DNA from: an uncultured Bacillota bacterium
GTDB lineage: Bacteria; Bacillota; DTU025; MWDF01
Assembly: GCA_963823655.1 (NCBI GenBank)
Contig: CAWGMK010000006.1
Coordinates: forward strand, 192,001 to 256,000
DNA: 64,000 nt
Reading direction: 5' to 3'
Positions 4,441 through 52,061 of this stretch are shown in pieces; positions within the stretch are counted from its first letter, which is position 1, and every line of letters starts with the position of its first letter. A model generated the notes under the pieces. That model saw nothing but the letters and a program-made list of their open reading frames with translations. It was not told the origin of the DNA and ran no database searches. The translations under genes were made by a program, and so were the position numbers.

Positions 4441-4543
4441 CGAAACGCCGGGATTGGGCAGGAGCAGGCAGCTTGAAGGGCCCTGGCCCAAAAAGGGCGA
4501 ACCTCACTTCAGTACATCAGCTTTTGCAGCGGCTTTGAAAAAC

Positions 4544-4580
4544 AATGGCTTGGCCCTATTGATTTAGGAGCCAAGCCATT
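4544..4580. terminator. Bidirectional terminator between acyltransferase and ktrB
   Basis: AATGGCTTGGC...GCCAAGCCATT inverted repeat flanked by A-rich and T-rich tracts. Confidence 0.65.
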
Positions 4581-4631
4581 TGCTTTATCGAAGTTGTGAT
4601 ACACATATTCCTTATGAGGTTAGCGCAACTG

Positions 4632-8075: not shown

Positions 8076-8690
8076 ATGAGCTTCATACCTTATGTCGTAG
8101 AGCAGTCCAATAAGGGCGAGAGGGTATACGATATCTATTCGCGCCTTTTAAAAGACAGGATCATCTTCCTCAACGGGGAGATAGACATGCACACTTCCGA
8201 CCTTATAATTGCCCAGTTCCTGTTCTTGCAGGCGGAAGATCCGGAGAAGGAGATCAACCTCTACATAAACAGCCCGGGAGGCTCGGTATACGCCGGCATG
8301 GCGATATATGATACCATGCAGTTCATAAAGCCACCTGTTGCCACGTTCTGCGTCGGGATCGCAGCCAGCATGGCCTCGATAATCCTTATGGGAGGCTCAC
8401 CCGGCAAAAGATATGCGCTTGCCAACTCAAGGGTGCTGATACATCAGCCCTTGGGCTCGGCCTCAGGGCAGGCCACCGACATACAGATACACGCCAAGGA
8501 GATCCTTAAGCTGAAGGACCTTGTGAAGGACATCATAGTGAAGCATACGGGGCAGAGACCATCAAAAGTCGGTTCGGACATCGAAAGGGATCTTTACATG
8601 ACGGCCCAGGAGGCGATCGATTACGGGATAATCGATAACATCCTGGAGGGCAATAAACAAGAAACACCCAGGAGGGCAACGAAGAAGTAA
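8076..8690 (+). CDS. clpP: ATP-dependent Clp protease proteolytic subunit
   Basis: [33 protein letters not shown]. Confidence 0.97.
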
Positions 8691-9961: not shown

Positions 9962-10009
9962 ACCCGGCGTCTTCTCGGTTGGCGAGTTGCGCCGGGTTTT
10001 CCGTCTTTT
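9962..10009 (+). terminator. Probable terminator after clpX
   Basis: ACCCGGCG..CGCCGGGT followed by T-rich tract. Confidence 0.55.
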
Positions 10010-10104
10010 GGAAGCCCGCTGAAAACGGAGCCGAGACTAGAGTATAATGTAAGTGGAACTATGGCGCATTTGTCTGCGTTATGTAAACCAGGAGGTGCAC
10101 TCGA

Positions 10105-12495
10105 ATGACGCACAGGACAATAGATGAAAAAGGTCAGATGGTAGAGATGCGCCTGCTCCCAGTAGTCCCGTTAAGGGGAGTAGTATTCTTCCCGGGCATG
10201 TTCACGCCTTTAGAGGTTGGAAGGGCCAAATCGGTAAACGCGGTGGAGAAGGCGTCTTTGGACGATTCTATGGTATTGCTAGTATCCCAGAAGGACCCGG
10301 CGGTAGAGGAACCTACTTCCGCCGATCTATTCGAAATGGGCTGCTTGGCCGAGATCAAGCAGTCAGTTAAGGGCCAGGATGGAACATTAAGAGTTCTTAT
10401 GCAGGGAGTTAACCGCGGGCATGTAGTCAGCTACATCGACAAGGACGATGTGCTGATGGCAGAGGCCAGGATTATTACCGACCCTGTTGTCCATAGCGCA
10501 AAGACTGAGACCCTCATGAGGATGGCGCTGAGCAGCTTCGAATCGCTGCTGCAGTCAGCTCGCAACATACCCAGCGAGGTCGCATTAGGCATAAGCCGCA
10601 TCGATAGCCCTGCAAAACTTGCGGACGAAATAGCTCCGAGGTTGCCGCTCAGGCTGACACAAAGGCAGAGCCTTCTGGACGCCGCCGATGTCGATGAGAG
10701 GCTTGAGAAGCTTATCGCCATCATGGAGACCGAGAAGCAGGTGCTGGAGATTGAGCAGGACCTGCAGGCCAAGGTGAGAAGGCAGATCGACAAGTCCCAG
10801 AAGGAATACTACCTGCGCGAGCAGATGAGAGTCATCCAAAAGGAGCTTGGCGAGGAGGAAGACAAGGAGGCCGATGCCGAAGCCTGGCGCAAGAAGCTGG
10901 ATGACAACAAGGCTCCGGAAGAGGTAAAAGCCAAAGCTGAAGCCGAGATCAAAAGGCTCAAGCTCATGGGGTCCATGGCCCCGGAGGCAACGGTCTCGCG
11001 CACTTATATCGAATGGTTAGCTGCCATGCCCTGGGGCAATTACACAGAGGATGTAATGGACCTGAAACAGGCTAAAAGGGTTCTCGACGAGGATCATTGG
11101 GGCCTTGAGAAGGTAAAGGAGAGGATACTCGAATTCCTGGCAGTCAGGAAGCTCTCTTCTTTGAATAAGGGCCCGATACTTTGCCTTGTTGGCCCTCCCG
11201 GCGTCGGCAAGACATCATTGGCGAAGTCCATAGCCCGCTCCCTGAACAGGAAGTTCGTAAGGTTCTCGCTGGGCGGCCTTAGGGATGAAGCTGAAATCAG
11301 GGGACACAGGCGCACTTACATAGGGGCACTGCCTGGCAAATTGGCGCATGCTCTTAAGCAGGCGGGGTCCGGCAATCCGGTGATATTGCTGGACGAAATC
11401 GACAAGCTGGGATCCGACTGGAGGGGAGACCCTTCCTCGGCAATGCTTGAAGTGCTCGACCCCGAGCAGAACAAGGCGTTTCTGGACCACTATATGGAAG
11501 TGCCGCTCGACTTGTCCAAAGTGATGTTCATCACTACGGCCAACTCGCTGCATAATGTACCTAAACCGTTGGCCGACAGGATGGAGATCATCGAGCTGTC
11601 CGGCTACACTGAGGATGAGAAGCTAGGCATCGCCAAGCAGTTTCTGATCCCCAAACAGAAGTCAGAGAACGGGCTTTCCGATACGGGCCTGGATTTCGTA
11701 GATGAAGCCGTGCTCGAGATTACGAGGCGCTACACTCGCGAGGCAGGTGTACGTGAGCTCGAAAGGCAGATAGGCAACATCATGCGCAAGATGGCATGGC
11801 GCAAAGTGGCGGGGGAGAAGACCCTCGAAAGCCCGATAGGGGCGGCCGACTTGCACGAGCTTCTTGGCGTCGAGAGATACCGCTACGGGGTCAGCGACAA
11901 GGAGAACAAAGTGGGATTGTCGACGGGCCTTGCCTGGACTGAAACCGGAGGAGACATCCTCTTCATAGAAACCACGGTCACAAAAGGCACCGGCAAGCTT
12001 ACCCTTACCGGGCAGATGGGCGACGTTATGAAGGAAAGCGCCCAGGCTGCGTACACTTATGTGCGCTCAAGGGCCAAGGAACTGGGGATAGACCCCTCGT
12101 TCTATGAGTCAACCGATGTGCACATCCACGTTCCGGAGGGCGCGATACCTAAAGACGGACCATCTGCCGGAATTGCGATGGCTACGTCTTTGGCTTCAGC
12201 CCTGTCCAACAGGCCCGTAAGGGCGGATCTGGCCATGACGGGGGAGATTACTTTAAGAGGCAGGGTGCTGCCCATCGGAGGGCTCAAGGAGAAGTCGCTG
12301 GCAGCGCTGAGAGCTGGCATAAAGACTGTGATCATTCCGGCAGACAACCATAAGGACCTGGAGAATATCCCGGCCAAAGTGAAGGAGCAAGTGCTATTCA
12401 TAGAGACCGACCAGATGGACAAGGTTCTTGAGACTGCCATGGCGATTGGGACCCCTGTTGGGCTTGAAGCAGTTGACAAGGCGGAATCCCGGTAA
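10105..12495 (+). CDS. lon: Lon protease (endopeptidase La)
   Basis: [38 protein letters not shown]; RBS AGGAGG. Confidence 0.97.
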
Positions 12496-12556
12496 TCGGG
12501 CAGGAACCGCGGGCAGGAAAGACCAAGCGCATAAGCCAATAATTCAGGATGAACCG

Positions 12557-12604
12557 AGTGCCGCCCGGGATGCTGCTCATGCGAATCCCAGGCGGCGCTT
12601 TTTC
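12557..12604 (+). terminator. Terminator after lon
   Basis: AGTGCCGCCCGGGAT..ATCCCAGGCGGCGCT followed by TTTT. Confidence 0.7.
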
Positions 12605-12762
12605 GTACTTGAAGTCAGAATAAAAGGGACACTGAAGCTACTCGGACTTGGCATGCAGTAAATAATTACTTGACATCACAGCTAATGGCCTTAATAGGTC
12701 TCTATTCTCGTAGAATTGTTAGATTGCTTGTGGACATTGATACCCCATGCATGTTTCGGTTA

Positions 12763-12886
12763 AGTAAACAAATGCTTTACATTGCAGCTTAAATACGATT
12801 AGGGCTAGCTCAATGCACAGATGGGCAGGATTGTAGAGGCACACAAGCTTCATCGCAACCGGCAATTAGTAAACAAATACTTTACA
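12763..12886. repeat. Two copies of a 19-bp imperfect palindrome AGTAAACAAATRCTTTACA (12763-12781, 12868-12886)
   Basis: Copies match at 18 of 19 positions; starts 105 bp apart in an AT-rich intergenic region. Confidence 0.8.
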
Positions 12887-13135
12887 ATGGATATTCAGCC
12901 AAGTCTTAAATGTCCGTGGAAGCCAACTTCTTCAAACCAAAGTGCGAATTCTGCCGGCTACATGCTGATTCTTGCTAAAATCCCGCGGTTCTGATTCTGA
13001 TTTTCCCGGAATCCTTGCCTATGCCACTTTGCTAATGTAAAATTAACTATTGCATTGCGAATTACGCCGACGGCCATGGCATCGCGCAAATTCCGCGATT
13101 TACGGGCCGGTGCGGTTTACAGGAGGAGATCTCTG

Positions 13136-15566: not shown

Positions 15567-18219
15567 ATGATCATGAGCACCAAACAATTAGCGCCGGCAT
15601 ATGAGCCGTCAACAGTAGAGGATAGGATATATGGTTTCTGGGAGGAGGGCGGCTACTTCCACGCAGAGCCCGACAAGAGCAAGGAGCCTTTCGTAATAGT
15701 CATGCCCCCGCCCAACATCACAGGCACGCTGCATATAGGACACGCACTGATGTCGACCATAGAGGACATACTTGTGCGTATAAGGCGCATGCAAGGCTAC
15801 AACACAGAATGGTGGCCGGGAACCGATCATGCATCCATAGCCACAGAGGCTAAAGTGGTCGCCTCCCTTGCGAAGGAGGGCATCACAAAGGCTGACCTGG
15901 GCCGCGAGGAGTTTCTTAAAAGGTGCTGGCAGTGGAAGGAGAACTACGGCGGCGCCATAGTGAACCAGCAGAAGAAGCTGGGCTGCTCGGCGGACTGGCA
16001 GAGGAGCCGCTTCACTATGGACGAAGTCTGCTCCAGGGCTGTCAGGGAAGTGTTCGTAAGGCTCTACGACGAAGGGCTTATATACCGCGGAAACCGCATG
16101 GTTAACTGGTGCACCAGCTGCAACACGTCCATATCCGACATTGAGGTGGAGCACGAGGACGTTACCGGAACCCTCTGGTACATCTCCTATCCGCTATCAG
16201 ATGGAACGGGAAGCATAACCATAGCGACTACAAGGCCTGAGACTATGCTCGGAGATACTGCAGTTGCCGTACATCCGGAGGACGACAGGTACAAGGCGGC
16301 AATAGGCAAGACCGTGAGGCTGCCCTTGGTCGGAAGGCTTATTCCCGTAATCGCCGACGAGTACGTAGACAGGCAGTTCGGCACGGGAGCCCTGAAAGTT
16401 ACGCCCTCACATGACGTCAACGACTATGAGCTGGGCAAGAAGCACAAGCTCGAAAGCGTACAAGTAGTAGGGCAGGATGGACTTATGACGGAGGATGCTG
16501 GTAAATTTGCCGGCATGAAGGCGGAGCTTGCCAGAAAGGCCGTGCTCGCGGAGCTGGAGGCGCTAGGTCTCATCAGCAAGACCGAGCCGCTTACCCACGC
16601 CGTCGGTCATTGCCAGAGGTGCGGCACCGTGGTAGAGCCGCTGCCCTCTCTGCAGTGGTTCGTGAAGATGGAGCCATTGGCAAAGCCGGCGGTAGAAGCC
16701 GCAAAATCAGGCGACATCAAGTTCGTGCCGGACCGCTTCACGAAGACATACCTCAATTGGATGGAAAACTGCAAGGACTGGTGCATATCCAGGCAGTTAT
16801 GGTGGGGCCACAGGATACCGGTGTGGTACTGCCAGTCCTGCGGGAAGCTCACTGCCTCCCGGGTAGACTTGGATAAATGCCCTGACTGCGGCGGGCCCGT
16901 AAACCAGGATGAGGATGTGCTCGATACATGGTTCTCGTCCGCCCTCTGGCCATTCTCCATAATGGGCTGGCCCGATATGACGCCTGAGCTGGAGCACTGG
17001 TACCCCGGTACGGTGCTTGAGACCGGCTATGACATCATCTTCTTCTGGGTGGCAAGGATGATCTTCTCGGGGCTGAAGTTCATGGGGCAGAAGCCCTTCT
17101 CGTATGTGCTCCTGCACGGACTGGTAAGGAATGCGGACGGCAGCAAGATGAGCAGGTCCAAAGGCCAGGGCGTGGACCCTCTGGAGATCATCTCCCAATA
17201 TGGGGCGGATGCTCTCAGGATGACCGTGATTTCGGGCAATACGCCCGGCAACGACATACGCTGGAACCCGGAGAAGGTGGAGGCTAACCGCAATTTCGCG
17301 AACAAGGTCTGGAACGCTTCCAGGTTCGTACTTATGAACCTTAGAAGGGTTTGACCCGGATGCGGTGGAGCCGGAGAAGCTGGAGATGACGCTGCCTGAC
17401 AGGTGGATTATCTCAAGGCTTGCGGCCGCTTCGGCCGAGGTGCAGAGGTTCACCGACAGGTTCGAAATAGGAGAGGCTGCCCGCATAGTGCAGGAATTCA
17501 TATGGGGGGAGTACTGCGACTGGTATATCGAGGCGGCAAAGCCAAGGCTATATGGCAAAGAGGGGGAGGATGCGAAGAAGACCGCACAGTTTATCCTCTG
17601 GAAGGGGCTCGACGGCGCCTTGAGGCTGCTGCACCCATTCATGCCCTTCATCACCGAGGAGATCTGGCAGATGCTTCCAGGATCCGTAGGGGCGCTGATC
17701 AATTCCCATCTGCCGGCATCCGCCGAAGCATTGAGGGATATGGCCGCCGAGGCTGAGATGGGCTCGATGATGGAGCTCATCAGGACGATCAGGAATATCA
17801 AGGCGGAGTTCGGCGTGGCAAGCAACAAGAAGGTCGATGCGGTGTTCCAGGGTGGCGACGGCGAGCTTGCCCTTGTAAACAGGAACATGGGCCTGATAAG
17901 GACCCTTGCCGGCGTTGAGAACGCAAGCACGATAACGCCTGAAGCAGGCAAACCCGCCAAAGCCGCAGCAGGCGTGGCCTCCGGGATGGGAGTGTTCCTC
18001 CCTCTTGAGGGAATGATCGACATCGGCAAGGAGATTGAAAGGCTCAAAAAGGAAGTAGCTGGCATCGAGAAAGAGCTTGCAGGCGTAATGGGCAAGCTGT
18101 CGAACGAATCATTCGTAAGCCGTGCCCCCGAGTCAGTAGTTGAGCGCGAAAGGAACAAGGCCTCAGAGCTCGAAGCTGCCTCCATCAAATTCAAGGCAAG
18201 GATAGAGGAGCTGAGCTAG
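15567..18219 (+). CDS. valS: Valine-tRNA ligase (single +1 frameshift near 17343)
   Basis: [48 protein letters not shown]; anticodon and coiled-coil domains in ORF 17365-18219. Confidence 0.95.
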
Positions 18220-21767: not shown

Positions 21768-22136
21768 ATGAAGATAGACGAGGTGGCCTCGCTACTTGAG
21801 GCAGAGGTAATGGCCTGTGGGATGGATTCGCTCTCCGAAGAGGCGGATTTCGCCTTCGCGGCCGATCTTCTCAGCGATGTCCTTGCCTTCGGAAGGCCGG
21901 GTTATCTTCTGCTGACCGGCCTTATGGGAGGGCAGCTGATCAGGACTGCCGAGATTTCGGGCGTTGCGGCGATAATTTTCGTAAGGGGCAAAAGGCCAAC
22001 CCACGATATGACAGAGCTTGCGACAAAGACAGGAATGCCTTTGCTTACTACCAGGATGACGATGTACGAGGCCTGCGGAAAGCTCTATGAGGCAGGGGTC
22101 AGCCCCGCCGACTGCACTTCGGTAAGGGGGTCGTAA
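21768..22136 (+). CDS. DRTGG-domain protein
   Basis: AADLLSDVLAF..LLLTGL..RTAE..IIFVRGK..MYEACGKLY pattern; RBS GGGAGG. Confidence 0.75.
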   Translation: MKIDEVASLLEAEVMACGMDSLSEEADFAFAADLLSDVLAFGRPGYLLLTGLMGGQLIRTAEISGVAAIIFVRGKRPTHDMTELATKTGMPLLTTRMTMYEACGKLYEAGVSPADCTSVRGS

Positions 22137-22137
22137 T

Positions 22138-22572
22138 ATGTCTTCTGCCGACAACACAAAGCTGCATTTTGAGATCATCTCCCGCGATTTTCTAAGGGCG
22201 GGGGATGCGGCGTCGACCATCAAGCGCTACCTGAGCCAGAACGGCTTCGATCCCGAGCTGGTCAGAAGGGCGGCTGTGGCGGCATACGAGGCCGAGATGA
22301 ACATAGTCATCCACTCCCTTGGAGGTATGCTCACAGCGCAGGTTGAACCAGACCTGATTCTGATAACAGCTGTAGATGTAGGGCCCGGGATACCCGACAT
22401 ACCGTTGGCAATGACCGAGGGCTGGTCGACTGCGGACGAAGAGGCGAGGCGGATGGGCTTCGGAGCAGGCATGGGACTGCCGAATATGCAGAAGTGCTCA
22501 GACAAGTTCGAGATCACTTCAAGCCCCGGTACAGGCACGATGGTGAGGATGACCTTGAACAGGCACAAGTAG
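22138..22572 (+). CDS. RsbT-like anti-sigma regulatory factor / Ser-Thr kinase (HATPase_c)
   Basis: YEAEMNIVIH, DVGPGIPDI..AMTEGWST, GFGAGMGLPN. Confidence 0.8.
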   Translation: MSSADNTKLHFEIISRDFLRAGDAASTIKRYLSQNGFDPELVRRAAVAAYEAEMNIVIHSLGGMLTAQVEPDLILITAVDVGPGIPDIPLAMTEGWSTADEEARRMGFGAGMGLPNMQKCSDKFEITSSPGTGTMVRMTLNRHK

Positions 22573-22606
22573 TGTATTTTTAAAGATACAATCGATATTT
22601 AACCTG

Positions 22607-22645
22607 TTGAGGGTGGGGGAAAGGGCCTTACCCTCAATTTTCTTT
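22607..22645 (+). terminator. Terminator closing the valS..kinase unit
   Basis: TTGAGGGT..ACCCTCAA followed by TTTTCTTT. Confidence 0.7.
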
Positions 22646-22731
22646 GCTTTAGCAGGCAATTCATGCTCATAGGTGTGTCCCCTCCCCCTTATGCGCCGAT
22701 TATGCGGATATTCAGGCGAAAGTGAAGAACT

Positions 22732-22753
22732 TTGTGAAAAGTTGTTGTATAAT
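22732..22753 (+). promoter_or_regulatory. -10 box of the redox operon with an upstream Rex-box half-site
   Basis: TTGTGAA at 22732-22738, TATAAT at 22748-22753; no clear -35 and no second half-site. Confidence 0.4.
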
Positions 22754-22824
22754 TCATATTGGATTTGGGCGCACTTGCGGACAATAAGCCGTTGAAGTGC
22801 AAGAATAGTGAACGGAGAGGTAAG

Positions 22825-23280
22825 ATGCAGCAGACCGGAAAGGTTTTGGCCGTAGAGAAGGGTTGGGCGGTCCTGGAGATAATCAGGCCCCATGCATGCG
22901 CAGGTTGCGGCATGTGCAAGCCTTCAGATAACGCCAAAAAAGTTAAAGCAATCTGCGAAATTGACGTAACACCGGGAGATTTCGTGACCGTTGAGATAAA
23001 AGACGGAGACCTCGTCAAGGTTGCCGGCATAGCATACGGGGTTCCTCTATTGGGTTTCCTTGCAGGCATGATCGCCGGGAACGGTGTCGCGAAGTATTTC
23101 AAGATGGCTGACAAGGCGAACGGTTTCGCCGCTATAGGAGGCTTCCTGTTCCTTGCTCTGGCATATTTCGCTGTTAGGAAATATGACATGGGCCTGGATA
23201 AGAGGAAGTACTGTCCGACGGTTTCAGGTAAAGCAGATCCCGGGGAAGATTCGTGCCCGGGCAGGGGCAATGCCTCTTGA
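22825..23280 (+). CDS. RseC/MucC-family membrane protein
   Basis: MQQTGKV start, CAGCGMC, GDFVTV, AYGVPL then two TM helices. Confidence 0.8.
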   Translation: MQQTGKVLAVEKGWAVLEIIRPHACAGCGMCKPSDNAKKVKAICEIDVTPGDFVTVEIKDGDLVKVAGIAYGVPLLGFLAGMIAGNGVAKYFKMADKANGFAAIGGFLFLALAYFAVRKYDMGLDKRKYCPTVSGKADPGEDSCPGRGNAS

Positions 23281-23304: not shown

Positions 23305-23952
23305 ATGAGCGAGCAGAAAGTACCTGATGTAGTAATCAGAAGGCTTCCTATGTACCTTAGGGCTTTGGACAACCTGGAAAGCGCCGGCTTGACCATCGTC
23401 TCATCAAAGGAGATGGGTGATGTAACGGGCATCTCTCCTACTCAGGTTCGTAAGGACCTGACAATATTCGGAGGCTTCGGCAAGCAGGGGGTAGGCTACA
23501 AGATCAGCACCCTGAAGAAACAGCTCATGACCATCCTGAAGCTCGACAAGGACGTTAAGATCGCGATAATCGGGCTCGGCAGGATGGGCAAGGCGATCAT
23601 TCATTACAATGCATACAGGCGCGGCACGGGGCAGAGGACCAGCGGCTCTGAGAAGCTCGTGATAGAGGCCGGATTCGATGTCGATGAGGCCGTACTCAAG
23701 GAAGGCCCGTTCGATACTGTGCCCGCATACAATATAAGCATGCTCAAGGACGTAATTGCGCAGAATGAGATTAAGATCGCAGTCCTTACTGTACCTGCGG
23801 AATCGGCCCAGAAGGTGGCGGACATCTGTGTACAAGCGGGCATAAAGGCGATACTCAACTTCACTCCCGCGACGCTTTCTGTGCCCGAGCATGTGAAAGT
23901 AAGCAATGCCGATGTGACGGTATCGCTCCAGAGCCTTTCATTCTACGCTTGA
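23305..23952 (+). CDS. rex: Redox-sensing transcriptional repressor Rex
   Basis: IRRLPMYLR, SSKEM, QVRKDL..FGGFGKQGVGY, GxGxxGxA Rossmann fold, GIKAILNFTP. Confidence 0.93.
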   Translation: MSEQKVPDVVIRRLPMYLRALDNLESAGLTIVSSKEMGDVTGISPTQVRKDLTIFGGFGKQGVGYKISTLKKQLMTILKLDKDVKIAIIGLGRMGKAIIHYNAYRRGTGQRTSGSEKLVIEAGFDVDEAVLKEGPFDTVPAYNISMLKDVIAQNEIKIAVLTVPAESAQKVADICVQAGIKAILNFTPATLSVPEHVKVSNADVTVSLQSLSFYA

Positions 23953-23986
23953 TCTCTAACCTATCGAATCAAGGAGGTAAATCCCT

Positions 23987-24904
23987 ATGTCCGGCAAGGC
24001 ATCGATTTTTACGCGCGGCAAGGTCCAGGGAATAATCCTTCTGGTGCTGATAATCGTCATCGGGGCGACTATCGCAGCAGCAAGCTACACCGAGACTGAC
24101 AAGTATTGCAGTTCCTGCCATTCAATGAAGCCCCTGGCCGATACATGGTCTGAAAGCAACCATGCACAGGTTGGATGCGCCGAATGCCATATGAAGCCCG
24201 GTTTCACGGGCTGGTTTGAGAACCGCTTCGCCATAGCCCGTATGAGGGGCGTAGAGAAGAAGGGCGGAACCACAAGTTTCGCCGAAATGCAGATAGAGGA
24301 CCAGTTCTGCGTGCGCTGCCATGCCAATGCGAGCACTTCCAAAGGATCGGAAGAGGTGGCGGCTCCGCACACCATACATGTTGGCGGAATGGGCATCGCC
24401 TGCTATGAGTGCCACGAGGGCCAGGTTCACGGGCTGGATGGCAACATGCCAGAGGGTATAAGCCATGACAAGTGCAACACCTGCCATTACGACTGGTTCG
24501 CAGAAGGCACCGCCGACTGCGCCAAGTGCCACATAAAAGCCGACATCGAAGCCACCGACAAGCTTATTATCCCTCACGAGACCCACAACTTCTTCGGGTG
24601 CGAATCCTGCCATGTCGAGTACGTGATAGGCGCTGAGGGCGAGCTGGGGCATCCGACCTGCACGCAATGCCATGAGGATTGGTTCAATGCGGCGGCCCCA
24701 AGCTGCGGAAGCTGCCATATCAATTTGGAGTTCACAGAGACCGAGGAATATACAATCCCCCATGGCGCACACATCGGCTTCGGGTGCGAGACCTGCCACA
24801 GCGACCAGGTTACACCCGCAGGAGAGGGCCTGAGCCATGCATCCTGCGAAGGCTGCCACGGCGACTGGTTCGAAGAAGAGTGCACCAAGTGCCATAAGTG
24901 GTAG
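23987..24904 (+). CDS. Membrane-anchored dodecaheme c-type cytochrome (NapC/NirT-like head plus three tri-heme repeats)
   Basis: 12 CxxCH motifs in 305 aa; N-terminal TM helix; CSSCHSM; RBS AAGGAGG. Confidence 0.92.
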   Translation: MSGKASIFTRGKVQGIILLVLIIVIGATIAAASYTETDKYCSSCHSMKPLADTWSESNHAQVGCAECHMKPGFTGWFENRFAIARMRGVEKKGGTTSFAEMQIEDQFCVRCHANASTSKGSEEVAAPHTIHVGGMGIACYECHEGQVHGLDGNMPEGISHDKCNTCHYDWFAEGTADCAKCHIKADIEATDKLIIPHETHNFFGCESCHVEYVIGAEGELGHPTCTQCHEDWFNAAAPSCGSCHINLEFTETEEYTIPHGAHIGFGCETCHSDQVTPAGEGLSHASCEGCHGDWFEEECTKCHKW

Positions 24905-24918: not shown

Positions 24919-25761
24919 ATGCACAAGATCCTTGAGAAAAGGCCTCTGGCCCAATCTGTCTACATGTTCGTGCTGGAAGCCCCGCTGGTGGCAAGGGCCG
25001 CCAAACCGGGCAACTTCGTTATGGTAAGGGCTGATGAGGCCGGCGAGAGGATACCTCTTACCATCGTAGATAACGACCCTGCAAAAGGGACGATAACCAT
25101 CGTAGTCCAGGAAATCGGCGCATCAACCATGAAGATGTGCGCATTTCCGGAAGGCGCATCATTCTCGGATGTTTTGGGCCCCTGCGGCACGCCCACCAAG
25201 ATCGAGAAGGTCGGCACCGTCATTGCCGTTGCAGGGGGCATCGGGATAGCACCCCTCATCCCGCAGATAAGGGAACACATGAGAGTAGGCAACAAGGTAG
25301 TAACAATCCTCGGCGCAAGGACTGAGGACCTCTATGTGCTAAGGGATACGGCGACTATGGTTTCAAGCGAGATGATACTTTGCACAGATGACGGAAGCTG
25401 CGGCTTCCACGGTTTCGTTACGCAGGCCCTTGAAGAGTATATAAAGGCGGGCAAGCCTGCGGATGAGGTTGTGGCGATAGGTCCGGTCAGGATGATGAAG
25501 GCCTGCGCCGATGTGACAAGGAAGTATGGAATCAAGACGACGGTCAGCCTCAACGCCACCATGCTTGACGGCACCGGAATGTGCGGCTGCTGCAGGGTCA
25601 GCATCGACGGCGTGACGAAGTTCTCGTGCGTTGACGGGCCCGAGTTCGATGCCCACAAAGTGGATTTCGACGAGCTGATAAAAAGGCAGACTTTCTTCCG
25701 CGAAGAGGAGAAGCTCGCAGTTGAAAAGCACAGGGCGGGGGAGGGCTGCAAATGCCAGTAA
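24919..25761 (+). CDS. nfnA: Electron-bifurcating transhydrogenase small subunit NfnA (SudB/PyrK-like)
   Basis: PGNFVMV..GERIPLTI, GGIGIAP, TDDGS, IGPVRMM, MLDGTGMCGCCRV..CVDGPEFD. Confidence 0.9.
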   Translation: MHKILEKRPLAQSVYMFVLEAPLVARAAKPGNFVMVRADEAGERIPLTIVDNDPAKGTITIVVQEIGASTMKMCAFPEGASFSDVLGPCGTPTKIEKVGTVIAVAGGIGIAPLIPQIREHMRVGNKVVTILGARTEDLYVLRDTATMVSSEMILCTDDGSCGFHGFVTQALEEYIKAGKPADEVVAIGPVRMMKACADVTRKYGIKTTVSLNATMLDGTGMCGCCRVSIDGVTKFSCVDGPEFDAHKVDFDELIKRQTFFREEEKLAVEKHRAGEGCKCQ

Positions 25762-27155
25762 AGGATCTTTTCGCGCGGCCTGAGATGCCCAAACAGGACC
25801 CGGGCGTGCGCAGTACGAATTTCAATGAAGTGGCCCTGGGCCTGGCCGAAGAAACCGCAATGCTTGAAGCCCAGAGGTGCATACAGTGCAAGAACAAGCC
25901 TTGCGTTGCCGGCTGCCCCGTCGAAGTGCCAATACCGGAATTCCTGGCCCTTTCGGCCCAGGGCAAGTTCACCGAAGCTTCTTTGAAAATCAAGGAGAAG
26001 AACAGCCTTCCTGCGGTATGCGGCAGGGTGTGCCCTCAGGAGAGCCAGTGCGAACAGGTATGCACGCTCGCCAAGAAGTTCAAGCCTGTGGCGATAGGCA
26101 TGATGGAGCGTTTCGTTTCCGACTATGAAAGGGCTAATTCCTCTGAGGATACGAAGAGAAGGACCAAGGATGGCGCAAAGAAAGTCGCAGTCATCGGATC
26201 CGGCCCGTCGGGGCTCACCTGCGCCGCGGACCTTGCGCTGATGGGCTATAACGTTGACATCTACGAGTCTTTGCACGAGACAGGTGGCGTCTTGAGGTAC
26301 GGCATCCCTGAGTTCAGGCTTCCCAAGGACATCGTCGACAAGGAAGTGCAGTACGTAAGGGAGCTTGGCGTAAGGATCATCACCAATGCCGTGATCGGCA
26401 TGAGCCTGACTTTAGAGGAGCTTCTGAGCACAGAGGGCTACAGCGCCGTCTTCATAGGCACGGGCGCAGGCCTTCCTTATTTCCTCGGCATACCGGGCGA
26501 GAACCTCAACGGCGTATATTCTGCCAATGAGTTTCTCACCAGGGTGAACCTTATGAAAGCCTACAAATTCCCCTGCTACGGGACGCCTGTGAAGATTGGC
26601 GAGAAGGTAGCGGTAGTCGGAGCGGGCAATGTGGCGATGGACTCGGCGAGGACCGCGCTCAGGCTGGGTGCCAAGGAAGTAAGCATAGTATACAGGAGGT
26701 CCCGCCAGGAGATGCCGGCGAGGATCGAGGAGATCGAAAACGCCGAGGAAGAGGGAGTCAAGCTTAACCTACTGACGAACCCGCTGGAGATCGTCGGCGA
26801 CTCTAATGGCGCAGTAATGAAGATGATCTGCCAGAGGATGGAGCTTGGTGAACCGGATGCCTCCGGGAGGCGCAGACCGGTTCCTGTGGCAGGCTCTGAG
26901 TTCGATGTTGAAGCACAGACGGTCGTTGTGGCGATAGGACAGGGGCCCAACCCCGTTCTGACGAGGAACACCAAGGGACTTGAGCTGAATAAGTATGGCA
27001 ATATTGTGTCAAGGGACGAGTATGGTCAGACCAGCATGCCCGGTGTATTCGCCGGTGGCGACATAGTCACGGGCGCGGCTACAGTCATAGCCGCCATGGG
27101 AGCAGGCAAGTTAGCAGCCAAAGGTATAGATATCTACATTAAATCGAAAGTATAA
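25752..27155 (+). CDS. nfnB: Transhydrogenase large subunit NfnB (GltD/SudA-like)
   Basis: [56 protein letters not shown]; overlaps nfnA; no gltB nearby. Confidence 0.88.
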
Positions 27156-27169: not shown

Positions 27170-28849
27170 ATGCCCATACCAAGCGACATCCAGATAGCAC
27201 AGGCAACAGAGTTGAGACCGATATCGGAAGTGGCGGCAAGCATCGGCCTTTCCGAGGAAGACCTCGAGCATTACGGCAAATACAAGGCAAAGCTCCCCTT
27301 AAGCCTGCTTGAAAGGCTCAAGGACAGGAAAGACGGCAAGCTGATCTACACAACTGCAATCACCGCGACGCCAGCTGGCGAGGGTAAGACCTGCACCGCG
27401 ATAGGCGTGACCCAGGCGCTGGGCAAGCTCGGCAAGAAAGTGGCCGTAGCCCTCAGGGAACCTTCCCTGGGCCCTGTTTTCGGAGTAAAAGGCGGAGCCA
27501 CCGGCGGGGGCTACTCCCAGGTCCTTCCGATGGAGGACATCAACCTCCACTTCACAGGCGATATTCACGCCGTCACAACGGCGCATAACCTGATGGTAGC
27601 GCTTCTGGACAACCATATTTTCCAGGGCAACGTCCTTAACATCGACCCGAGAAGGGTTACCGTTAAGCGCGTTATGGACATGAATGACAGGCAGCTGAGG
27701 AACATCGTATGCGGGCTTGGCGGCACAAACAACGGAGTGCCCAGGGAGAGCGGCTTCGATATCAGCGTCGCATCAGAAGTGATGGCGATACTTTGCCTGG
27801 CATCGGGCACCGAGGACCTGAAGGCCAGATTGGGAAGGATAATCGTCGCTTATACCCACGACAGGAAGCCTGTGACTGCAGCCGACATCAAAGCAGTAGG
27901 CTCCATGGCAGTGCTGCTCAAGGACGCCATTAAACCGAACCTTGTACAGACAGTCGAAGGGCAGCCCGCGCTGATACACGGCGGCCCGTTCGCCAATATC
28001 GCCCACGGCAACAACTCGATAATCGCAACCCGGCTGGCTCTTAAGTTAGCCGACTATGTAGTAACCGAGGGCGGCTTCGCTTCAGACCTGGGAGCGGAGA
28101 AGTTCTTCGACATAGTACACAGGCAGACCGGCCTCAAGCCGGACGTGGCAGTCCTGGTGGCATCGGTAAGGGCCTTGAACATGCACGGCGGAGTAGCGAA
28201 GGACAAGGTCTCGGAGACCAACCTCGAAGCGCTTGCCAAAGGCTGCGAGAACCTGGAAGCCCACATCGACAACCTGAAGAACAACTTCGGCCTTCCTGTG
28301 GTAGTCGCGATAAACAGGTTCCCGTCCGACAGCCCGGAGGAGCTGGAGCTTGTTAAGGACCGCTGCGAGAAGCGCGGCGTCCGTTACGCGGTTTCCGAAG
28401 TCGTCGCCAAGGGCGGAGATGGCGGCGCAGAGCTTGCAAAGCAGGTCCTGGAAGCGCTCGAGAACGACAAGAACGACTTCAGGATGCTGTACAGCCTCGA
28501 TATACCGGCTGAGGAGAAGATAAAGAAGCTGGCCAAGGAAGTATATGGCGCTGACGATGTGATATTCTCCGAGTCCGCCAAGAATATGCTCGGTACAGTC
28601 AGGAAGATCGGCTATGGCAATCTGCCCATATGCATGGCGAAGACGCAGCATTCCCTCTCGGACAACCCTGATATGAAGGGAAGGCCCAGAGGATGGAAGC
28701 TGAGCGTAAGGGAAATCAGGATATCGGCTGGCGCTGGCTTCATAGTTGCGATAACAGGCGAAGTAATGACCATGCCTGGGCTTCCGAAGGTGCCCGCTGC
28801 GGACAGCATCGATATTCTTGAGGATGGCACTATACTAAATCTGTTCTAA
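27170..28849 (+). CDS. fhs: Formate-tetrahydrofolate ligase
   Basis: [59 protein letters not shown]. Confidence 0.97.
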
Positions 28850-28895: not shown

Positions 28896-30212
28896 ATGGC
28901 TGTGAGGACATTCATCGGTGGAATCCACCCGGTATCGTGCAAATTCACCGGGGATTTGCCGATAGTAGCCGGCAAGCTGCCAGCTAAGCTGACGGTGCCG
29001 GTCGGTCCCTCTTGGGTCGGCTACACCGTTCTGGCGCCCAGGGGCACCGAAGTAAAAGTGGGCCAGAAGCTAGCCGACAATGAGGGCTTTATGTGCGTTC
29101 CTACGCACTCCCCCGTATCAGGGAAAGTGGTTGACGTAAAACCTTACAGGGGGCCCAACGGCCTCGAGTACCTCGGGATCACGATCGAAACTGACGGCAG
29201 GCAGGACATACACGAGAGCGTGCAGCCCCTGCCAGCTTTGGAGACGATGAGCCCCGAGGACATCAGGAAGGCCATTAGGGAGGCCGGCATGCTGGGACAG
29301 GGCGGGGCTGAGTTCCCGACACACGTCAAGCTATCTCTCCCCCAGGGCTGCAAAGTGGACACTTTGGTTGTAAATGGCGGTGAATGCGAACCGTACCTGA
29401 CAGCCGACCACAGGATTATGCTAGAGCACGCGGAGAAAGTCGTTCACGGGACTTCCATCCTGATGAGGAGCATCGGCGTAGACCGGGCGATCATCGGCGT
29501 AGAGGACAACAAGATGGATGCCGTGATGGCATTGAACAGCGCAGCGCTTTCCTATAAGGGAATAGAGATTGCGGCGTGCAAGGCAAATTATCCGCAAGGA
29601 TATGAGAAGTCGATGATCAAAGCGACGCTAGGGCGCGAAGTGCCCCCAGGCGGGCTGCCTAGGGATGTCGGCGTGGTAGTCGTCAATGTCGGCACCGCCG
29701 CATCAATATCCGAGAGATTCCGCACAGGCATGCCCCTTATAAAAAGGATTGTGACCGTAGGCGGCTCAGCCGTGCAGAATCCGTCGAACATCGAAGCCCT
29801 TATCGGGACCTACGCCCAGGACCTTGTGGAACAGTGCGGCGGCACTAAAGGCGAGGTGGGGAAGGTCATCTTCGGCGGCCCCATGATGGGAGTCGCCGCA
29901 TCAGGCCTTAACTTCCCGGTCTCGAAGGGAACGTCCGGGATAATCCTGTTCGACCGCAAGGAGACGCTCTTCTGGAAAGAGATGCCTTGCATAAGATGCG
30001 GCAGGTGCAATGAAGTCTGCCCGATGTTCATTGAGCCTTCTGAGATACACAAGTACGCCCTTGCAGGCGATATGCAAAGGGCTGAAAAGCTAAACGCCGT
30101 AGATTGCATGGAGTGCGGGAGCTGTTCATACGTGTGCCCGTCAAAGAGGCCTATAGTGCAGTCTATCAAGCTGGCCAAGCAGTACGTGCAGGCCAAGCGC
30201 GGCAAGAAGTGA
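28896..30212 (+). CDS. rnfC: Rnf complex subunit C
   Basis: GGIHP, HSPVSGKV, GGAEFPTHVKL, ECEPYLTADHR, GGPMMG, CIRCGRC..CP and CMECGSC..CP. Confidence 0.93.
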   Translation: MAVRTFIGGIHPVSCKFTGDLPIVAGKLPAKLTVPVGPSWVGYTVLAPRGTEVKVGQKLADNEGFMCVPTHSPVSGKVVDVKPYRGPNGLEYLGITIETDGRQDIHESVQPLPALETMSPEDIRKAIREAGMLGQGGAEFPTHVKLSLPQGCKVDTLVVNGGECEPYLTADHRIMLEHAEKVVHGTSILMRSIGVDRAIIGVEDNKMDAVMALNSAALSYKGIEIAACKANYPQGYEKSMIKATLGREVPPGGLPRDVGVVVVNVGTAASISERFRTGMPLIKRIVTVGGSAVQNPSNIEALIGTYAQDLVEQCGGTKGEVGKVIFGGPMMGVAASGLNFPVSKGTSGIILFDRKETLFWKEMPCIRCGRCNEVCPMFIEPSEIHKYALAGDMQRAEKLNAVDCMECGSCSYVCPSKRPIVQSIKLAKQYVQAKRGKK

Positions 30213-30225
30213 CGGGGTGATGGAC

Positions 30226-31198
30226 ATGTCAGATAACGGCCTAATAATCACTGCGGCTCCGCACATAAGAGAAAGGGTGGCGACACCCAGAATCATGAGG
30301 GCGGTATTCGCGGCCCTAGTGCCGGCTCCGCCTGCGGAATATATTTCTTCGGGCCCTGGGCTGCGATCAATATCGTAGTCGGCGTGGCGTCTGCAGTCAT
30401 CTTGGAGTACCTGATACAGAAGATATGGAAGCTCGAGATAACCATTAGCGACGGTTCGGCTGCCCTTGACAGGGCTTTTCATAGCGATGAGTCATGCCTC
30501 CGGCAGTAGAACCATGGGTGACCGCACTTGCGTGCCTTATAGCCATAGGGCCCGGCAAAATGGTGTTCGGCGGCTGGGCTTCAACATATTCAATCCCGCG
30601 CTAATCGGAAGGACCTTTGCGGCGCTCGCTTGGCCTGGCGGTCGTAGGCGCAGGTTATGTGGCGCCCGGCGGCATAGAGGCCTGGATAGCGAGGTTTCGA
30701 CGTAGTTTCGACAGCGACTCCGCTCACACTGCTGAAGACGGAGAGATCGGAGGCACAACGCTTTCAAAGTACTATTGCCCGCTCTTCTTTGGCAATGTTG
30801 CAGGGTCGCTCGGGGAGACTTCGGCGGTTGCGCTTCTTATCGGGGCGCTATTCCTGCTCTTTGCAGGCATCATTACACTGAGGATACCGCTGGTCTACAT
30901 ATTGACTACAGTAGGCCTTGCCATGGCTTTCAATCAGGATCCGATCTTCCATCTGCTGTCGGGAGGCCTGATTCTTGGAGCATTCTTCATGGCCACAGAC
31001 TATGTGACAAGCCCGATAAAGCCTACCGCGCAGATAGTATATGCGGTGGGGTTAGGGGTATTCACGTTCCTTATAAGGATGTTCGGCAGCTATCCTGAGG
31101 GCGTGGCGTTCTCGATACTTCTTATGAACTGCTTCGTGCCGCTCATTGAGAGGTTCGGCAAGCCGAGGCGTTTCGGGGAGGTGCGCAACCATGCGTGA
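30226..31198 (+). CDS. rnfD: Rnf complex subunit D (several frameshifts between 30330 and 30760)
   Basis: APHIR, FGGxGFNIFNPALIGR, STATPL flavinylation site, GSLGETS, GAFFMATDYVTSP, YPEGVAFSILLMN. Confidence 0.9.
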
Positions 31199-31753
31199 TC
31201 TAGTTAAGTACGGAGCGATACTGACGATAATATGCATAGTTTCCGGCGTTTCATTGGCCTTCGTTTACAGCAAGACCAGCGTGATAATCGCCGACAGGCA
31301 GGCAAAAGAAGCGATGAAGGCAATGGCAGTAGTGCTTCCCGCAGCGACGGATTTCGTAGAGATTCCGGCGGACGAGCTTTCGCAGCGGCGGGAGAGGCTA
31401 CAGGAATTCTGCAGGCATACCTCGGAAAGCCGCGGATGAGACCGTAGGGGCGATTGTAAAAGTGGAAAGCCCGGGTTACGGCGGCATGATATCATGCTAA
31501 TTGGCATGGATAGCTGCGGAGTATGCCAGGGCATGCAGGTCATAAGCCAGAGCGAGACGCCCGGGCCTCGGGGCCAATGTCAAGGAAGAGGCCTTCTATG
31601 GCCAGTTCGCTGGACAAGCAGGGACGTATTGTCCCTGAAGAAAGCGGGCGGCAGACATCGACGCGATATCGGGCGCCACGATTTCGTCCAAGGCGTGCGG
31701 TTGCCGGGGTCAATAAGGCCCTTGATGTGGCAAGAGCGCTCCTTGGGCTGTAG
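31191..31753 (+). CDS. rnfG: Rnf complex subunit G (several frameshifts)
   Basis: N-terminal TM helix, SPGYGG, SETPGLG, DAISGATISS FMN site spread over frames. Confidence 0.85.
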
Positions 31754-31766
31754 GGAGGAATCGAAG

Positions 31767-32428
31767 ATGAGCGCAATCAAGGAATTCAAGAAGGGTTTAT
31801 GGGCGGAGAGCCCGACCTTCGTACTGCTCATTGGCATGTGCCCTACAATGGTGTCTTCGACATGCGGTGTCAAATGCGCTGGGAATGGGGCTTGCCGCAA
31901 CATTCGTTTTGGTCTTCAGCAACCTGTTCATAGCGGCCCTTAGGAGCATAATACCTGACAAGATAAGGATCCCCTGCTTCATCGTTGTAATTGCGACCTT
32001 CGTTACGATAGTAGACCTCGTCATGGCGGCATATGTGCCGGACCTCCACAAGGTGCTCGGAGTCTTCGTCCCCTGATAGTGGTCAACTGCATAATACTAG
32101 CCAGGGCAGAGGCATTCGCCTATAAGAACAGCGTAGTCGACTCGATAGCGGACGGGCTCGGGATGGGCCTCGGCTTTACTATTGGCGTACTGATTATCTC
32201 GCTATAATCAGGGAGCCCCTTGCTACCGGTAAGATAATGGCTACGCCAAGGACTTCAACTTCGAAGGCTTAAGGCTTCTGCCGGTAAAATTCGCAGCGCA
32301 CTCTCATAGACAAGCCTGTCGGCGGCTTCATGACCCTCGGCTTCGTGCTTGCGGCGATAAATGCGCTCACAAGCAAGAAGAAGAAGGCGCAGCAGGCCAA
32401 TTGCGGCTGCGTCCCGAAGGAGGTATAG
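31767..32428 (+). CDS. rnfE: Rnf complex subunit E (several frameshifts)
   Basis: [55 protein letters not shown]. Confidence 0.88.
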
Positions 32429-32431
32429 CCT

Positions 32432-33032
32432 ATGAAAGAACTATTCGTAATCCTTCTTAGCACAATCCTGGTCAACAATTATATGCTGGCCAGAATAATG
32501 GGTACTTGCCCGTTCATCGGCGTCTCGAACCAGTTCGATACCGCCATGGGCATGGCTGCGGCCGTAGTCTTCGTTATGAGCCTTGCGGCTGCGGTGACGT
32601 GGCTTGTGCAGTACTATCTGCTCGTTCCCCTGGGATTGGGCTTCCTCCAGACGGTAGCCTTCATCCTGGTAATAGCAGCGCTGGTGCAGCTCATCGAGAT
32701 GATCATCCTGAAGATGAGCCCCACCCTTTACAGGGCGCTTGGGAATATACCTTCCGCTGATCACGACCAACTGCGCAGTCCTCGGCGTCGCAGTTATCAA
32801 CGTGCGCGATGGATACAACTTCATAGAAGCTGTCATATCCGGCACAGGCGGAGGCATCGGCTTCTCCCTGGTGCTGATTGCAATGGCGGCTCTTCGCGAA
32901 AAGCTCAATACGGCGCCGATTGCGAAGTCCTTCAAGGGCTTCCCGCTGACGCTGATCATAACTGCCCAGATGGCGATGGCTTTCCTGGGCTTCTCCGGTT
33001 TCAACCTCGAGAAGCTCTTCGGCCTGCGCTAG
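32432..33032 (+). CDS. rnfA: Rnf complex subunit A (frameshift near 32742)
   Basis: LVNNYML..GTCPFIGVS, FILVIAALVQ, LGIYLPLITTNCAVLG, AFLGFSG. Confidence 0.9.
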
Positions 33033-33056
33033 CCGGCCGATGGAGGTGTAAGAAAG

Positions 33057-33878
33057 ATGGTACTCAACAGCTTATTCGTCCTGGGCGGCATGGGATTGGC
33101 CTTCGGAGTGGCGCTTGCCATAGCGGCAAGGTTGCTTGCGGTCGAAAGGGATCCCAGGATGGAGCTCGTACAGGCGGCTCTTCCCGGAGCCAACTGCGGA
33201 GCTTGCGGCTTCCCCGGTTGCGGCGGCCTGGCAACGGCCATCGTAGAGGGCAAGGCCCCGTGCGACCAGTGCCCCGTCGGCGGAGCCAAAGTGGCGGCCA
33301 AGGTGGCCGAGATAATGTGCGTCGTGGTAGATACAAGCAAAGGCCCCAATTTCGCAAGGCTGATGTGCGCAGGCGGCAAGGGGATCGCGAGGGACGTGGC
33401 CGAATATCAGGGGATTATGGACTGCACTGCAGCACATGCAGTAAGCGGCGGGTTCAAGGCGTGCTCCTACGGCTGCCTCGGCCTTGCCACATGCGTCAGG
33501 GAATGCCCGTTCGACGCAATGTACATGGGAGAGGACAACCTTCCCAAAATAGACGATTCAAAGTGCACAGGCTGCGGAAAGTGCGTTACCGCCTGCCCTA
33601 GGGCATTGCTTGCCCTCAGGTCGGCGGATGAGCCGGTGAACGTGGTCTGCACATCTAAAGCCCCGCTTCCAAAGAGCAAGCTGGATTGCTCGGCGGTATG
33701 CATCGGCTGTCAGATCTGCGTTAAGAACTGCCCTACTCAGGCCATACGCATGGAAGGCACAGTAGCGGTAATCGACAACAGCAAATGCACCAAGTGCGGC
33801 ATATGCATACAGAAATGCCCGGTCAAGTGCATACATAACCTCTTCGGGGCGGACTCGGACCTGATAGTCCAGGCCTGA
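33057..33878 (+). CDS. rnfB: Rnf complex subunit B
   Basis: TM anchor, LPGANCGACGFPGC, CSYGCLGLATCVRECPF, further CxxCxxCxxxCP motifs. Confidence 0.93.
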   Translation: MVLNSLFVLGGMGLAFGVALAIAARLLAVERDPRMELVQAALPGANCGACGFPGCGGLATAIVEGKAPCDQCPVGGAKVAAKVAEIMCVVVDTSKGPNFARLMCAGGKGIARDVAEYQGIMDCTAAHAVSGGFKACSYGCLGLATCVRECPFDAMYMGEDNLPKIDDSKCTGCGKCVTACPRALLALRSADEPVNVVCTSKAPLPKSKLDCSAVCIGCQICVKNCPTQAIRMEGTVAVIDNSKCTKCGICIQKCPVKCIHNLFGADSDLIVQA

Positions 33879-34114: not shown

Positions 34115-34691
34115 ATGGGAAAGATAGTGCTTGCCTCGGCGTCTCCGAGGAGAATAGAGCTTCTAGGTGCGCTAGGGCTGAAATTCGATGTTGTGCCCAG
34201 CAATGAGGAAGAAGTAGTGGACGATTGCCTGTCTCCGGACGAATTGGTGAATGTCTTTGGCCAGGCTAAAGGCTGCGGCGGTGGCAAAGCTGAGGCCGTC
34301 CGACACAATCATCGGGGCGGATACAGTAGTCGTGCTTAACGGAATAATCCTCGGCAAACCGGCAGACAACAAGGACGCATGCGCGATGCTCAGCATGCTT
34401 GAAGGCAAAGAGCATGAGGTATTCACCGGCGTCTGTGTCATCTGCAGGGAAAAGGGAATAGAGGACTGCCGCCACGAGGTGACCAAGGTGCGCTTCTGTT
34501 CCATGAGCAGGGCTGATATCGAAAGTTACGTTGCCACAGGGGAACCCATGGACAAGGCCGGAGCATATGCCATTCAGGGTTTGGGATCATTATTCGTGTC
34601 AGGAATAACCGGGGATTACTTCAATGTTGTCGGGCTTCCGCTAAGGCTGACCGCCTCGATGCTCATTGAAGCCGGCACGCACATAATCTAG
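34115..34691 (+). CDS. maf: Maf nucleotide pyrophosphatase (frameshift near 34250)
   Basis: LASASPRR, GADTVV, LGKP, DKAGAYAIQG, NVVGLP. Confidence 0.9.
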
Positions 34692-51884: not shown

Positions 51885-51903
51885 GGAAGCAAAACGGTTA
51901 CGC

Positions 51904-51980: not shown

Positions 51981-51985
51981 ATAAT

Positions 51986-52061
<76 letters not shown>

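Follow-up and report, generated by a model that had tools for sequence, protein, structure and literature searches.

A dodecaheme cytochrome that joins an NrfH-like head to three c7-type units: a probable outlet for electrons in an uncultured digester bacterium

Here, we describe a dodecaheme c-type cytochrome encoded on a 64,000-nucleotide stretch of contig CAWGMK010000006.1 (positions 192,001 to 256,000) from an uncultured Bacillota bacterium (GenBank assembly GCA_963823655.1); this whole stretch is referred to below as the window. The cytochrome gene lies in a predicted operon with the order rseC-rex-cytochrome-nfnAB-fhs-rnfCDGEAB (Table 1). Its product carries CxxCH heme-binding motifs starting at residues 41, 64, 108, 139, 163, 178, 205, 225, 240, 267, 287, and 299 (n = 12), compared with at most three in any of 20,000 shuffles of the same composition. 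The first motif is CSSCHSM, which includes Met-47. Of the 23 histidines, 12 belong to CxxCH motifs and 11 are spare (residues 59, 128, 131, 148, 160, 197, 200, 222, 259, 262, and 284). The protein contains a single hydrophobic stretch, in which the best 19-mer begins at residues 13–16 (mean Kyte-Doolittle hydropathy 2.7), and AlphaFold2 (AF2) modeled a helix over residues 10–34 with a predicted local distance difference test (pLDDT) score of 90–95. The heme density amounts to 25.4 amino acids per heme (305/12), and the repeats described below are acidic, with 30 Asp and Glu residues versus 6 Lys and Arg residues. These data are in line with the original prediction, made from the sequence alone, of a transmembrane (TM) anchor, 12 hemes beginning with CSSCHSM, about 25 residues per heme, and repeats rich in Asp and Glu.

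The same prediction had recognized three tandem repeats, marked by the elements PHTIH, PHETH, and PHGAH and by the signatures YDWF, EDWF, and GDWF. Local alignment of the repeat pairs gave scores of 111–123 against shuffle means of 28–30 (z 14–15), and none of 500 shuffles equaled these scores, confirming that the repeats are real. The further claim that each repeat has three spare histidines was correct for repeats 2 and 3, whereas repeat 1 has four. Tandem Repeats Finder detected no repeat within the gene at the DNA level, indicating that the duplication is old.

Profile comparisons placed the repeats among the c7-type cytochromes, as had been proposed. PF14522 (Cytochrome_C7) matched the whole protein with 46.6 bits over residues 125–182. 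When the units were scanned individually, unit 1 scored 29.2 bits (cut-off 24.8) and unit 2 scored 17.7 bits, below the cut-off; unit 3 alone gave no PF14522 match, only one to Cytochrom_c3_2 (23.3 bits, cut-off 25). Both Cytochrom_c3_2 and Cytochrom_CIII also exceeded their Pfam cut-offs on the whole cytochrome. Searching the PDB sequences with the family profile recovered GSU1996 (3ov0_A, E 1.6e-16) in four stretches that matched all four of its domains, together with PpcA/c7 chains (E 1e-6 to 1e-5). The score against TIGR04257 (nanowire_3heme) was 16.4 bits, below the cut-off of 40; thus, the match to GSU1996 indicates homology to the Geobacter c7 polymers, but not membership.

Like GSU1996 (PDB entry 3OV0), the cytochrome has twelve hemes and tandem c7-type domains connected by short linkers. 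Published work presents GSU1996 as a nanowire of the periplasm in which four c7 domains, each with one His-Met heme, make up a linear 12-heme chain, and its structure paper carries the words “extended 12 nm protein” in the title (PMC10138318). In contrast, the present protein consists of a head and three units, and its family is found in Bacillota metagenome-assembled genomes (MAGs) instead of Geobacter. Each unit follows the pattern HxxH...CxxCH...H-x2-CxxCH...CxxCH of the triheme PpcA/c7 proteins (∼70 residues) but, unlike PpcA, is only 45–55 residues long, acidic, and concatenated onto a membrane head.

The linkers between units measure exactly 14 residues in the cytochrome and in those of its 1–9-unit relatives that have several units. 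The heme cysteines and histidines and the spare histidines were invariant or at least 90% conserved in alignments of relatives, and in unit 2 every Cys and His is invariant (alignment A6). Units 2 and 3 contain no methionine; therefore, all of their hemes must be bis-His. The ligand count appears to close exactly, in that nine spare histidines would serve the nine c7 hemes. This would leave His-59 and His-148 as the sole spare histidines for head hemes 2 and 3, with Met-47, and possibly Met-86, presumed to serve heme 1.

The N-terminal part resembles the NapC/NirT/NrfH proteins, in agreement with the original prediction. PF03264 (Cytochrom_NNT) matched residues 16–73 with 33.9 bits (cut-off 24.1), covering only profile positions 14–77 of 174. 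The NrfH equivalog model TIGR03153 aligned residues 15–148 with model positions 5–138 of 138 at 36.4 bits, under its cut-off of 134.2, which none of the 12 relatives scanned reached (best 73.5 bits). In an AF2 model built on 150 homologues, pLDDT was ∼90 for residues 10–170 and 50–70 for the remainder. The top Foldseek match of this model in the PDB was NrfH (2j7a_C), aligned over 144 columns of the 145-residue target (TMt 0.64, probability 1.00, E 0.016), and no other convincing fold match was obtained in that database. The same chain was found by sequence when the HMMER family profile was run against PDB sequences (E 2.3e-10). The span of the TIGR03153 alignment and the Foldseek match indicate that, by homology and in the model, the head adopts a four-heme NrfH-like fold whose fourth heme (Cys-139) doubles as heme 1 of repeat 1. 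A separate three-heme head, as originally proposed, was rejected because the NrfH-like module extends over four hemes and overlaps repeat 1.

As in NrfH from Desulfovibrio vulgaris (PDB entries 2J7A and 2VR0), the TM helix is followed immediately by CxxCHxM within a four-heme fold. Unlike NrfH, the cytochrome has eight further hemes fused in cis and a PHxxH-bearing insert before heme 4, and its gene is flanked by rex and nfnA with no nrfA neighbor. In the HMMER profile alignment, NrfH Met-49 aligned with Met-47 of the cytochrome, which is invariant in two alignments of relatives (A1 and A4), Lys-82 aligned with Arg-80 (Lys or Arg across the clade), and Arg-88 aligned with Arg-85. In NrfH, Met-49 is described as a ligand of heme 1 and Lys-82 and Asp-89 as parts of the quinol site (PMC3279761 and PMC2762525).

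A word-index search returned seven close relatives with 66–97% identity. Counting the cytochrome itself, 8/8 members of this 305-residue family are 304–305 residues long and carry 12 CxxCH motifs; two of the close relatives, from Bacillota MAGs, bear the automatic names “cytochrome c3 family protein” and “NapC/NirT family cytochrome c.” An exhaustive HMMER search yielded 1402 proteins at E ≤ 1e-3, and features were counted in 150 of them (P0009–P0158). An N-terminal hydrophobic segment was present in 142/150, the first-heme CxxCHxM was present in 122/150, and heme counts ranged from 3 to 30, suggesting that NrfH-like heads with extra hemes form a large, mostly unnamed group. Clusters combining NNT and C7 domains were also seen in several phyla in a protein atlas.

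The nearest matches beyond the 305-residue family (38–41% identity) have the head in common with it and likewise end in CHKW, a C terminus found in 12 of the 158 sequences P0001–P0158 (the cytochrome being P0001). These matches are P0012 (174 residues, six hemes, one c7 unit), P0013 (N-terminally truncated, two units), P0011 (494 residues, 21 hemes, six units), and P0010 (683 residues, 30 hemes, nine units). The occurrence of one, two, six, or nine units on the same head, corresponding to 6–30 hemes, indicates that the wire is extensible, in support of the earlier suggestion that it lengthens by duplication. The units of the cytochrome are 69–72% identical to the same-position units of its relative P0007 and 34–50% identical to one another, whereas the internal units of the six- and nine-unit proteins are 60–67% alike. 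These identities suggest that the triplication is old in the lineage and that the longer forms grew by amplification of internal units. We rejected a recent tandem duplication in the cytochrome on the basis of these values and of the lack of a DNA-level repeat.

Two further observations were made among the homologues. P0010 has CSSCHTV as its first motif and has thus lost the methionine of CxxCHxM, and it retains the Arg-Met pair that aligns with NrfH Arg-88/Asp-89. A locus from a Myxococcales MAG (L007) gave a weak c7 match; its three large multiheme open reading frames (ORFs) at 3397–4599, 8378–9658, and 9998–12892, with 13, 13, and 19 CxxCH motifs, respectively, are unrelated to the cytochrome's clade.

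The cytochrome gene is predicted to be cotranscribed with rex, nfnAB, fhs, and rnfCDGEAB. This prediction is based on gaps of only 14–46 nt, or overlaps, between the genes of the cluster (the nfnA start lies 14 nt past the cytochrome stop), on the lack of a convincing terminator-like hairpin within the cluster, where only weak plus-strand matches were detected, and on the terminator and conserved promoter block upstream. The gene order was the same in 6/6 related loci from uncultured Clostridia/Bacillota MAGs, with 68–77% identity. In all six, the 27-nt block ACTTTGTGAARRRTTGTTGTATAATTC was near-invariant, varying at three purine positions, and its flanks diverged. The block overlaps the −10 box and spacer and contains a TTGTGAA half-site and, in the window, an AACTTT-N4-AAAGTT palindrome; it is probably the operator of some regulator, which is possibly Rex. 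The canonical Rex operator, TTGTKAANNNNTTMACAA, had no match across the window at up to two mismatches, so control of the operon by Rex is only a possibility. The name Nfn is our own interpretation of the matches to NF004862 and TIGR01316.

Table 1. Features of the cytochrome gene and its predicted operon in the window
Feature	Position	Strand	Evidence or remark
Terminator-like hairpin, strong	22606..22648	+	13-bp stem with 6 GC pairs, then T-run; closes the upstream unit
Promoter/operator block ACTTTGTGAAAAGTTGTTGTATAATTC	22729..22755	+	TATAAT at 22748-22753; upstream of rseC
rseC-like, first gene of predicted operon	22825..23280	+	PF04246, E 7e-24
rex (redox-sensing repressor)	23305..23952	+	NF003995, 223 bits (cut-off 126)
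Shine-Dalgarno GGAGG	23973..23977	+	9 nt 5' of ATG, read from sequence
Dodecaheme c-type cytochrome gene	23987..24904	+	Intact ORF, 305 aa (P0001), 12 CxxCH
N-terminal hydrophobic helix, aa ∼13-33	24023..24085	+	Hydropathy; AF2 helix; aligned with NrfH TM helix
NrfH-like tetraheme module, aa 15-148	24029..24430	+	Hemes C41, C64, C108, C139; TIGR03153, Foldseek, HMMER
c7-type tri-heme unit 1, aa 127-182	24365..24532	+	PF14522 above cut-off alone; PpcA 9-71 aligned
c7-type tri-heme unit 2, aa 196-244	24572..24718	+	Aligned internally with units 1 and 3, z 15
c7-type tri-heme unit 3 and C-terminal CHKW, aa 258-305	24758..24901	+	Internal alignment; conservation
nfnA-like	24919..25761	+	NF004862, 385 bits; start by tblastn to related locus L005
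nfnB-like	25752..27155	+	TIGR01316, 582 bits
fhs (formate-tetrahydrofolate ligase)	27170..28849	+	PF01268, E 4e-263
rnfCDGEAB	28896..33875	+	rnfD, rnfG, rnfE, and rnfA riddled with 1-2-nt indels
rnfC, intact	28896..30212	+	TIGR01945, 475 bits
rnfB, intact	33057..33875	+	RnfB Fe-S domains

In clostridial acetogens, rseC lies directly upstream of rnfC. Here, the two genes are split by rex, the cytochrome, nfnAB, and fhs, giving an unusually large predicted “redox super-operon” in six MAGs. Within its rnf part, the block of rnfD, rnfG, rnfE, and rnfA (30327–33049, 2.7 kb) contains 21 window-specific, out-of-frame indels of 1–2 nt relative to the related loci L005 and L001, seen as frame switches in tblastn, whereas the flanking rnfC and rnfB contain none. 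The indels are not obviously homopolymeric, and the block represents either a badly polished stretch of the assembly or genuine decay of the membrane Rnf subunits. Single frame breaks also split or truncate housekeeping genes at ∼7.2 kb (tig), 17338–17365 (valS), ∼21.4 kb, 34251–34339 (maf), 41958–42011 (radical SAM), 45001–45063 (RNase G), 48.0–48.4 kb (UPF0182), and 4632–5609 (a TrkH fragment). These scattered breaks suggest roughly one indel error per 5–10 kb outside the rnf block.

No other ORF with CxxCH, and no nrfA-like partner, was present in the non-overlapping set of window ORFs of at least 80 residues. Nor did any curated family model claim the cytochrome at full length in NCBIfam and Pfam scans, and the same was true for 12 relatives. 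The original prediction had named a full-length match to a characterized family with a known partner as one finding that would speak against it; we found neither. The rest of the window encodes housekeeping functions (tig, clpX, lon, valS, folC, mreB, PBP2, rodA, thrS, and ribosomal proteins). The stretch 21768–22572, immediately ahead of the operon, encodes two proteins that are conserved at this place in the relatives: one with a DRTGG domain and a small, anti-sigma-kinase-like one with HATPase_c_2, which are 77 and 93% identical to those of L001, respectively. The window also contains two tRNA clusters (51809–52333 and 56791–57387), a lone 5S rRNA (57010–57126) with no 16S or 23S rRNA nearby, and a T-box leader (52544–52765) that precedes thrS.

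Given the intact gene, its heme motifs, the homology of its domains, the varying number of repeats, and the conserved gene order, we propose, at about an even chance, that the NrfH-like head and the three c7 units form a membrane-tethered electron conduit that is coexpressed with energy-conserving enzymes. In the uncultured digester bacterium, the cytochrome probably serves as an outlet for electrons. For this proposal, we infer heme ligation, linear geometry, retention of the anchor, donor, acceptor, and direction of electron flow as follows. The twelve covalent hemes would be exposed at the outside of the cytoplasmic membrane, where the uncleaved N-terminal helix probably retains the protein. 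Heme 1 (CSSCHSM, Met-47), at the membrane surface, would be the likely point of electron entry, and the donor might be menaquinol, as for NrfH, CymA, and ImdcA, or another membrane donor, possibly Rnf. Head heme 4 would double as heme I of unit 1, the three units being set apart by the fixed 14-residue linkers. All nine hemes of the c7 units would be bis-His, as would hemes 2 and 3 of the head, with 11 conserved spare histidines available for 11 hemes. The result could be a continuous 12-heme chain of roughly 10 nm, by analogy with GSU1996, along which electrons would leave (or approach) the membrane and reach an acceptor in the periplasm, in the wall, or outside the cell. If cotranscribed with rex, nfnAB, fhs, and rnf, the cytochrome may vent or import the reducing equivalents of folate-pathway and Rnf metabolism.

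Several observations weigh against a membrane-tethered conduit of this kind. The cytochrome falls far under the NrfH equivalog cut-off given above, and it scores only 16.4 bits against the NapC/NirT model TIGR02161 (cut-off 310.6). The quinol-binding Asp-89 of NrfH aligned with Met-86, and this Arg-Met pair is conserved in the clade, indicating that the NrfH-type quinol site is altered and that quinol oxidation is not assured. The original prediction of a quinol dehydrogenase head thus stands as far as homology to NrfH and the CxxCHxM motif are concerned, but not for the quinol-binding aspartate. The hydrophobic segment ends in AAAS, and this small-x-small pattern recurs in P0010–P0012, so that cleavage by signal peptidase is possible. 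Units 2 and 3 were modeled with low confidence (pLDDT 50–70), and an AF2 model of the tail only (residues 120–305, 14-row alignment) reached a mean pLDDT of 56 and a predicted TM-score (pTM) of 0.33; linear heme packing is therefore a tentative part of the proposal. By eye, no wall-anchoring or surface motif was recognized at the CHKW C terminus. Genes for quinone biosynthesis, for cytochrome c maturation, and for other components of extracellular electron transfer were absent both from the window and from the 10-kb flanks in the relatives. Finally, the relatives of Fhs point to no single taxon and hence to neither a monoderm nor a diderm envelope.

An alternative donor would be the Rnf complex itself. 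The cytochrome could be a bacterial analogue of MmcA whose head docks on the outward side of Rnf, for example on the flavin mononucleotide (FMN) domain of RnfG, and bypasses the quinone pool, so that the whole rseC...rnf operon would encode a single ferredoxin-driven, ion-pumping machine for outward electron transfer. This arrangement, which we judge unlikely, would fit the position of the cytochrome inside an expanded rseC-...-rnfCDGEAB cluster, which a conserved promoter precedes in 6/6 loci, as well as the loss of the NrfH quinol-binding aspartate. The RnfG proteins of the relatives contain the motif SGATISS, presumably the outward-facing site at which FMN is covalently bound. MmcA is described as an Rnf subunit encoded in the order mmcA-rnfCDEGAB in Methanosarcina acetivorans (PMC12174285 and PMC13013709); by description, it resembles the cytochrome in being a multiheme c-type protein that is encoded with rnf and is implicated in intracellular and extracellular electron transfer. 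However, MmcA is archaeal and heptaheme, and its gene directly adjoins rnfC, whereas here nfnAB and fhs intervene before rnfC, making the adjacency looser, and the head is NrfH-like. A CxxCHxM head with Lys or Arg at the Lys-82 position also resembles a quinol-type module, and an RNF review gives a cytochrome subunit for the archaeal enzyme only (PMC12174285). There is correspondingly a slim chance that the modular c7 wire (6–30 hemes) of the rseC-rex-nfn-fhs-rnf super-operon is the first bacterial counterpart of MmcA. If so, ferredoxin and NADH electrons from folate-dependent oxidation of acetate and C1 compounds would be pumped and passed straight to conductive particles or to partner methanogens, and in uncultured digester Bacillota a single protein would provide a route for direct interspecies electron transfer (DIET).

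The positively charged N-region, the hydrophobic core of ∼18 residues, and the AAAS end are also what a long Sec signal peptide would look like. Cleavage of the helix would yield a mature protein of 272 residues, a secreted soluble heme store acting as a capacitor or shuttle in the periplasm or wall space with no membrane entry point, and GSU1996-type polymers have indeed been proposed as periplasmic electron stores (PMC10138318). We consider this improbable, because the TM helix of NrfH, with which the segment aligns by both sequence and fold, is retained. ImdcA (Tfer_0070) from Thermincola ferriacetica, which has a similar N terminus, keeps its signal peptide and is described as a membrane-anchored decaheme cytochrome proposed to oxidize menaquinol (PMC7911101). 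ImdcA resembles the cytochrome, by description, as a membrane-held Gram-positive multiheme protein with one probable high-spin heme that directs electrons outward; it differs in having ten hemes and a mass of ∼41.7 kDa and in passing electrons to the separate proteins PdcA, CwcA, and OcwA (PMC7911101). Furthermore, the hydrophobic N terminus and the first-heme CxxCHxM recur in most of the homologues counted above (142 and 122 of 150, respectively).

According to the NrfHA structure paper, heme 4 of NrfH is reportedly completed by the partner protein; in the cytochrome, PHxxH supplies histidine ligands in cis. This difference, the lack of a reductase gene both in the window and in the DNA flanking the gene in six relatives, and a repeat number of 1–9 that is hard to reconcile with a fixed enzyme partner make it unlikely that the cytochrome plays the classical NrfH/NapC role of a quinol dehydrogenase for a soluble reductase encoded elsewhere, with the c7 units as a built-in redox shuttle, even though the head is homologous to NrfH and proteins of the NapC/NirT/CymA type are described as serving reductases at other loci, CymA being a branching point (PMC2762525).

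Concerning the organism that would use the proposed membrane-tethered conduit, Fhs is 87–90% identical to MAG proteins, and its nearest named relatives are Mahella (70–71%) and Limnochordia MAGs (69%). One of the six related loci comes from an “ADurb” bin, a label that we take to be linked to anaerobic digesters. Cultured Limnochordia are described as diderm, and published work connects the MBA03 group with DIET and with the syntrophic oxidation of acetate (PMC11456536 and PMC11932165); these facts serve as background, and we do not place the organism of the window in MBA03.

Both building blocks of the cytochrome are well known, and NNT plus C7 combinations are common in automatic annotation. 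In the literature consulted, including PMC12663870, we found no description of a cytochrome that combines an NrfH head with a c7 concatemer, nor of a bacterial rnf operon that includes a cytochrome gene. Electron routes from the membrane to the envelope are known for very few Bacillota, and in these they run via several separate cytochromes. Here, one polypeptide unites a membrane entry module with a c7 chain of variable length (1, 2, 3, 6, or 9 units), providing a natural series in which heme-wire length could be compared with envelope geometry; at 305 residues, the present member is of a size that suits heterologous expression and biophysical work. Its placement with rex and nfnAB-fhs-rnf ties the cytochrome to the kind of energy metabolism expected of digester acetogens or syntrophic acetate oxidizers. 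Cytochrome-mediated interspecies electron transfer has often been proposed for digesters and has rarely been traced to a specific gene.

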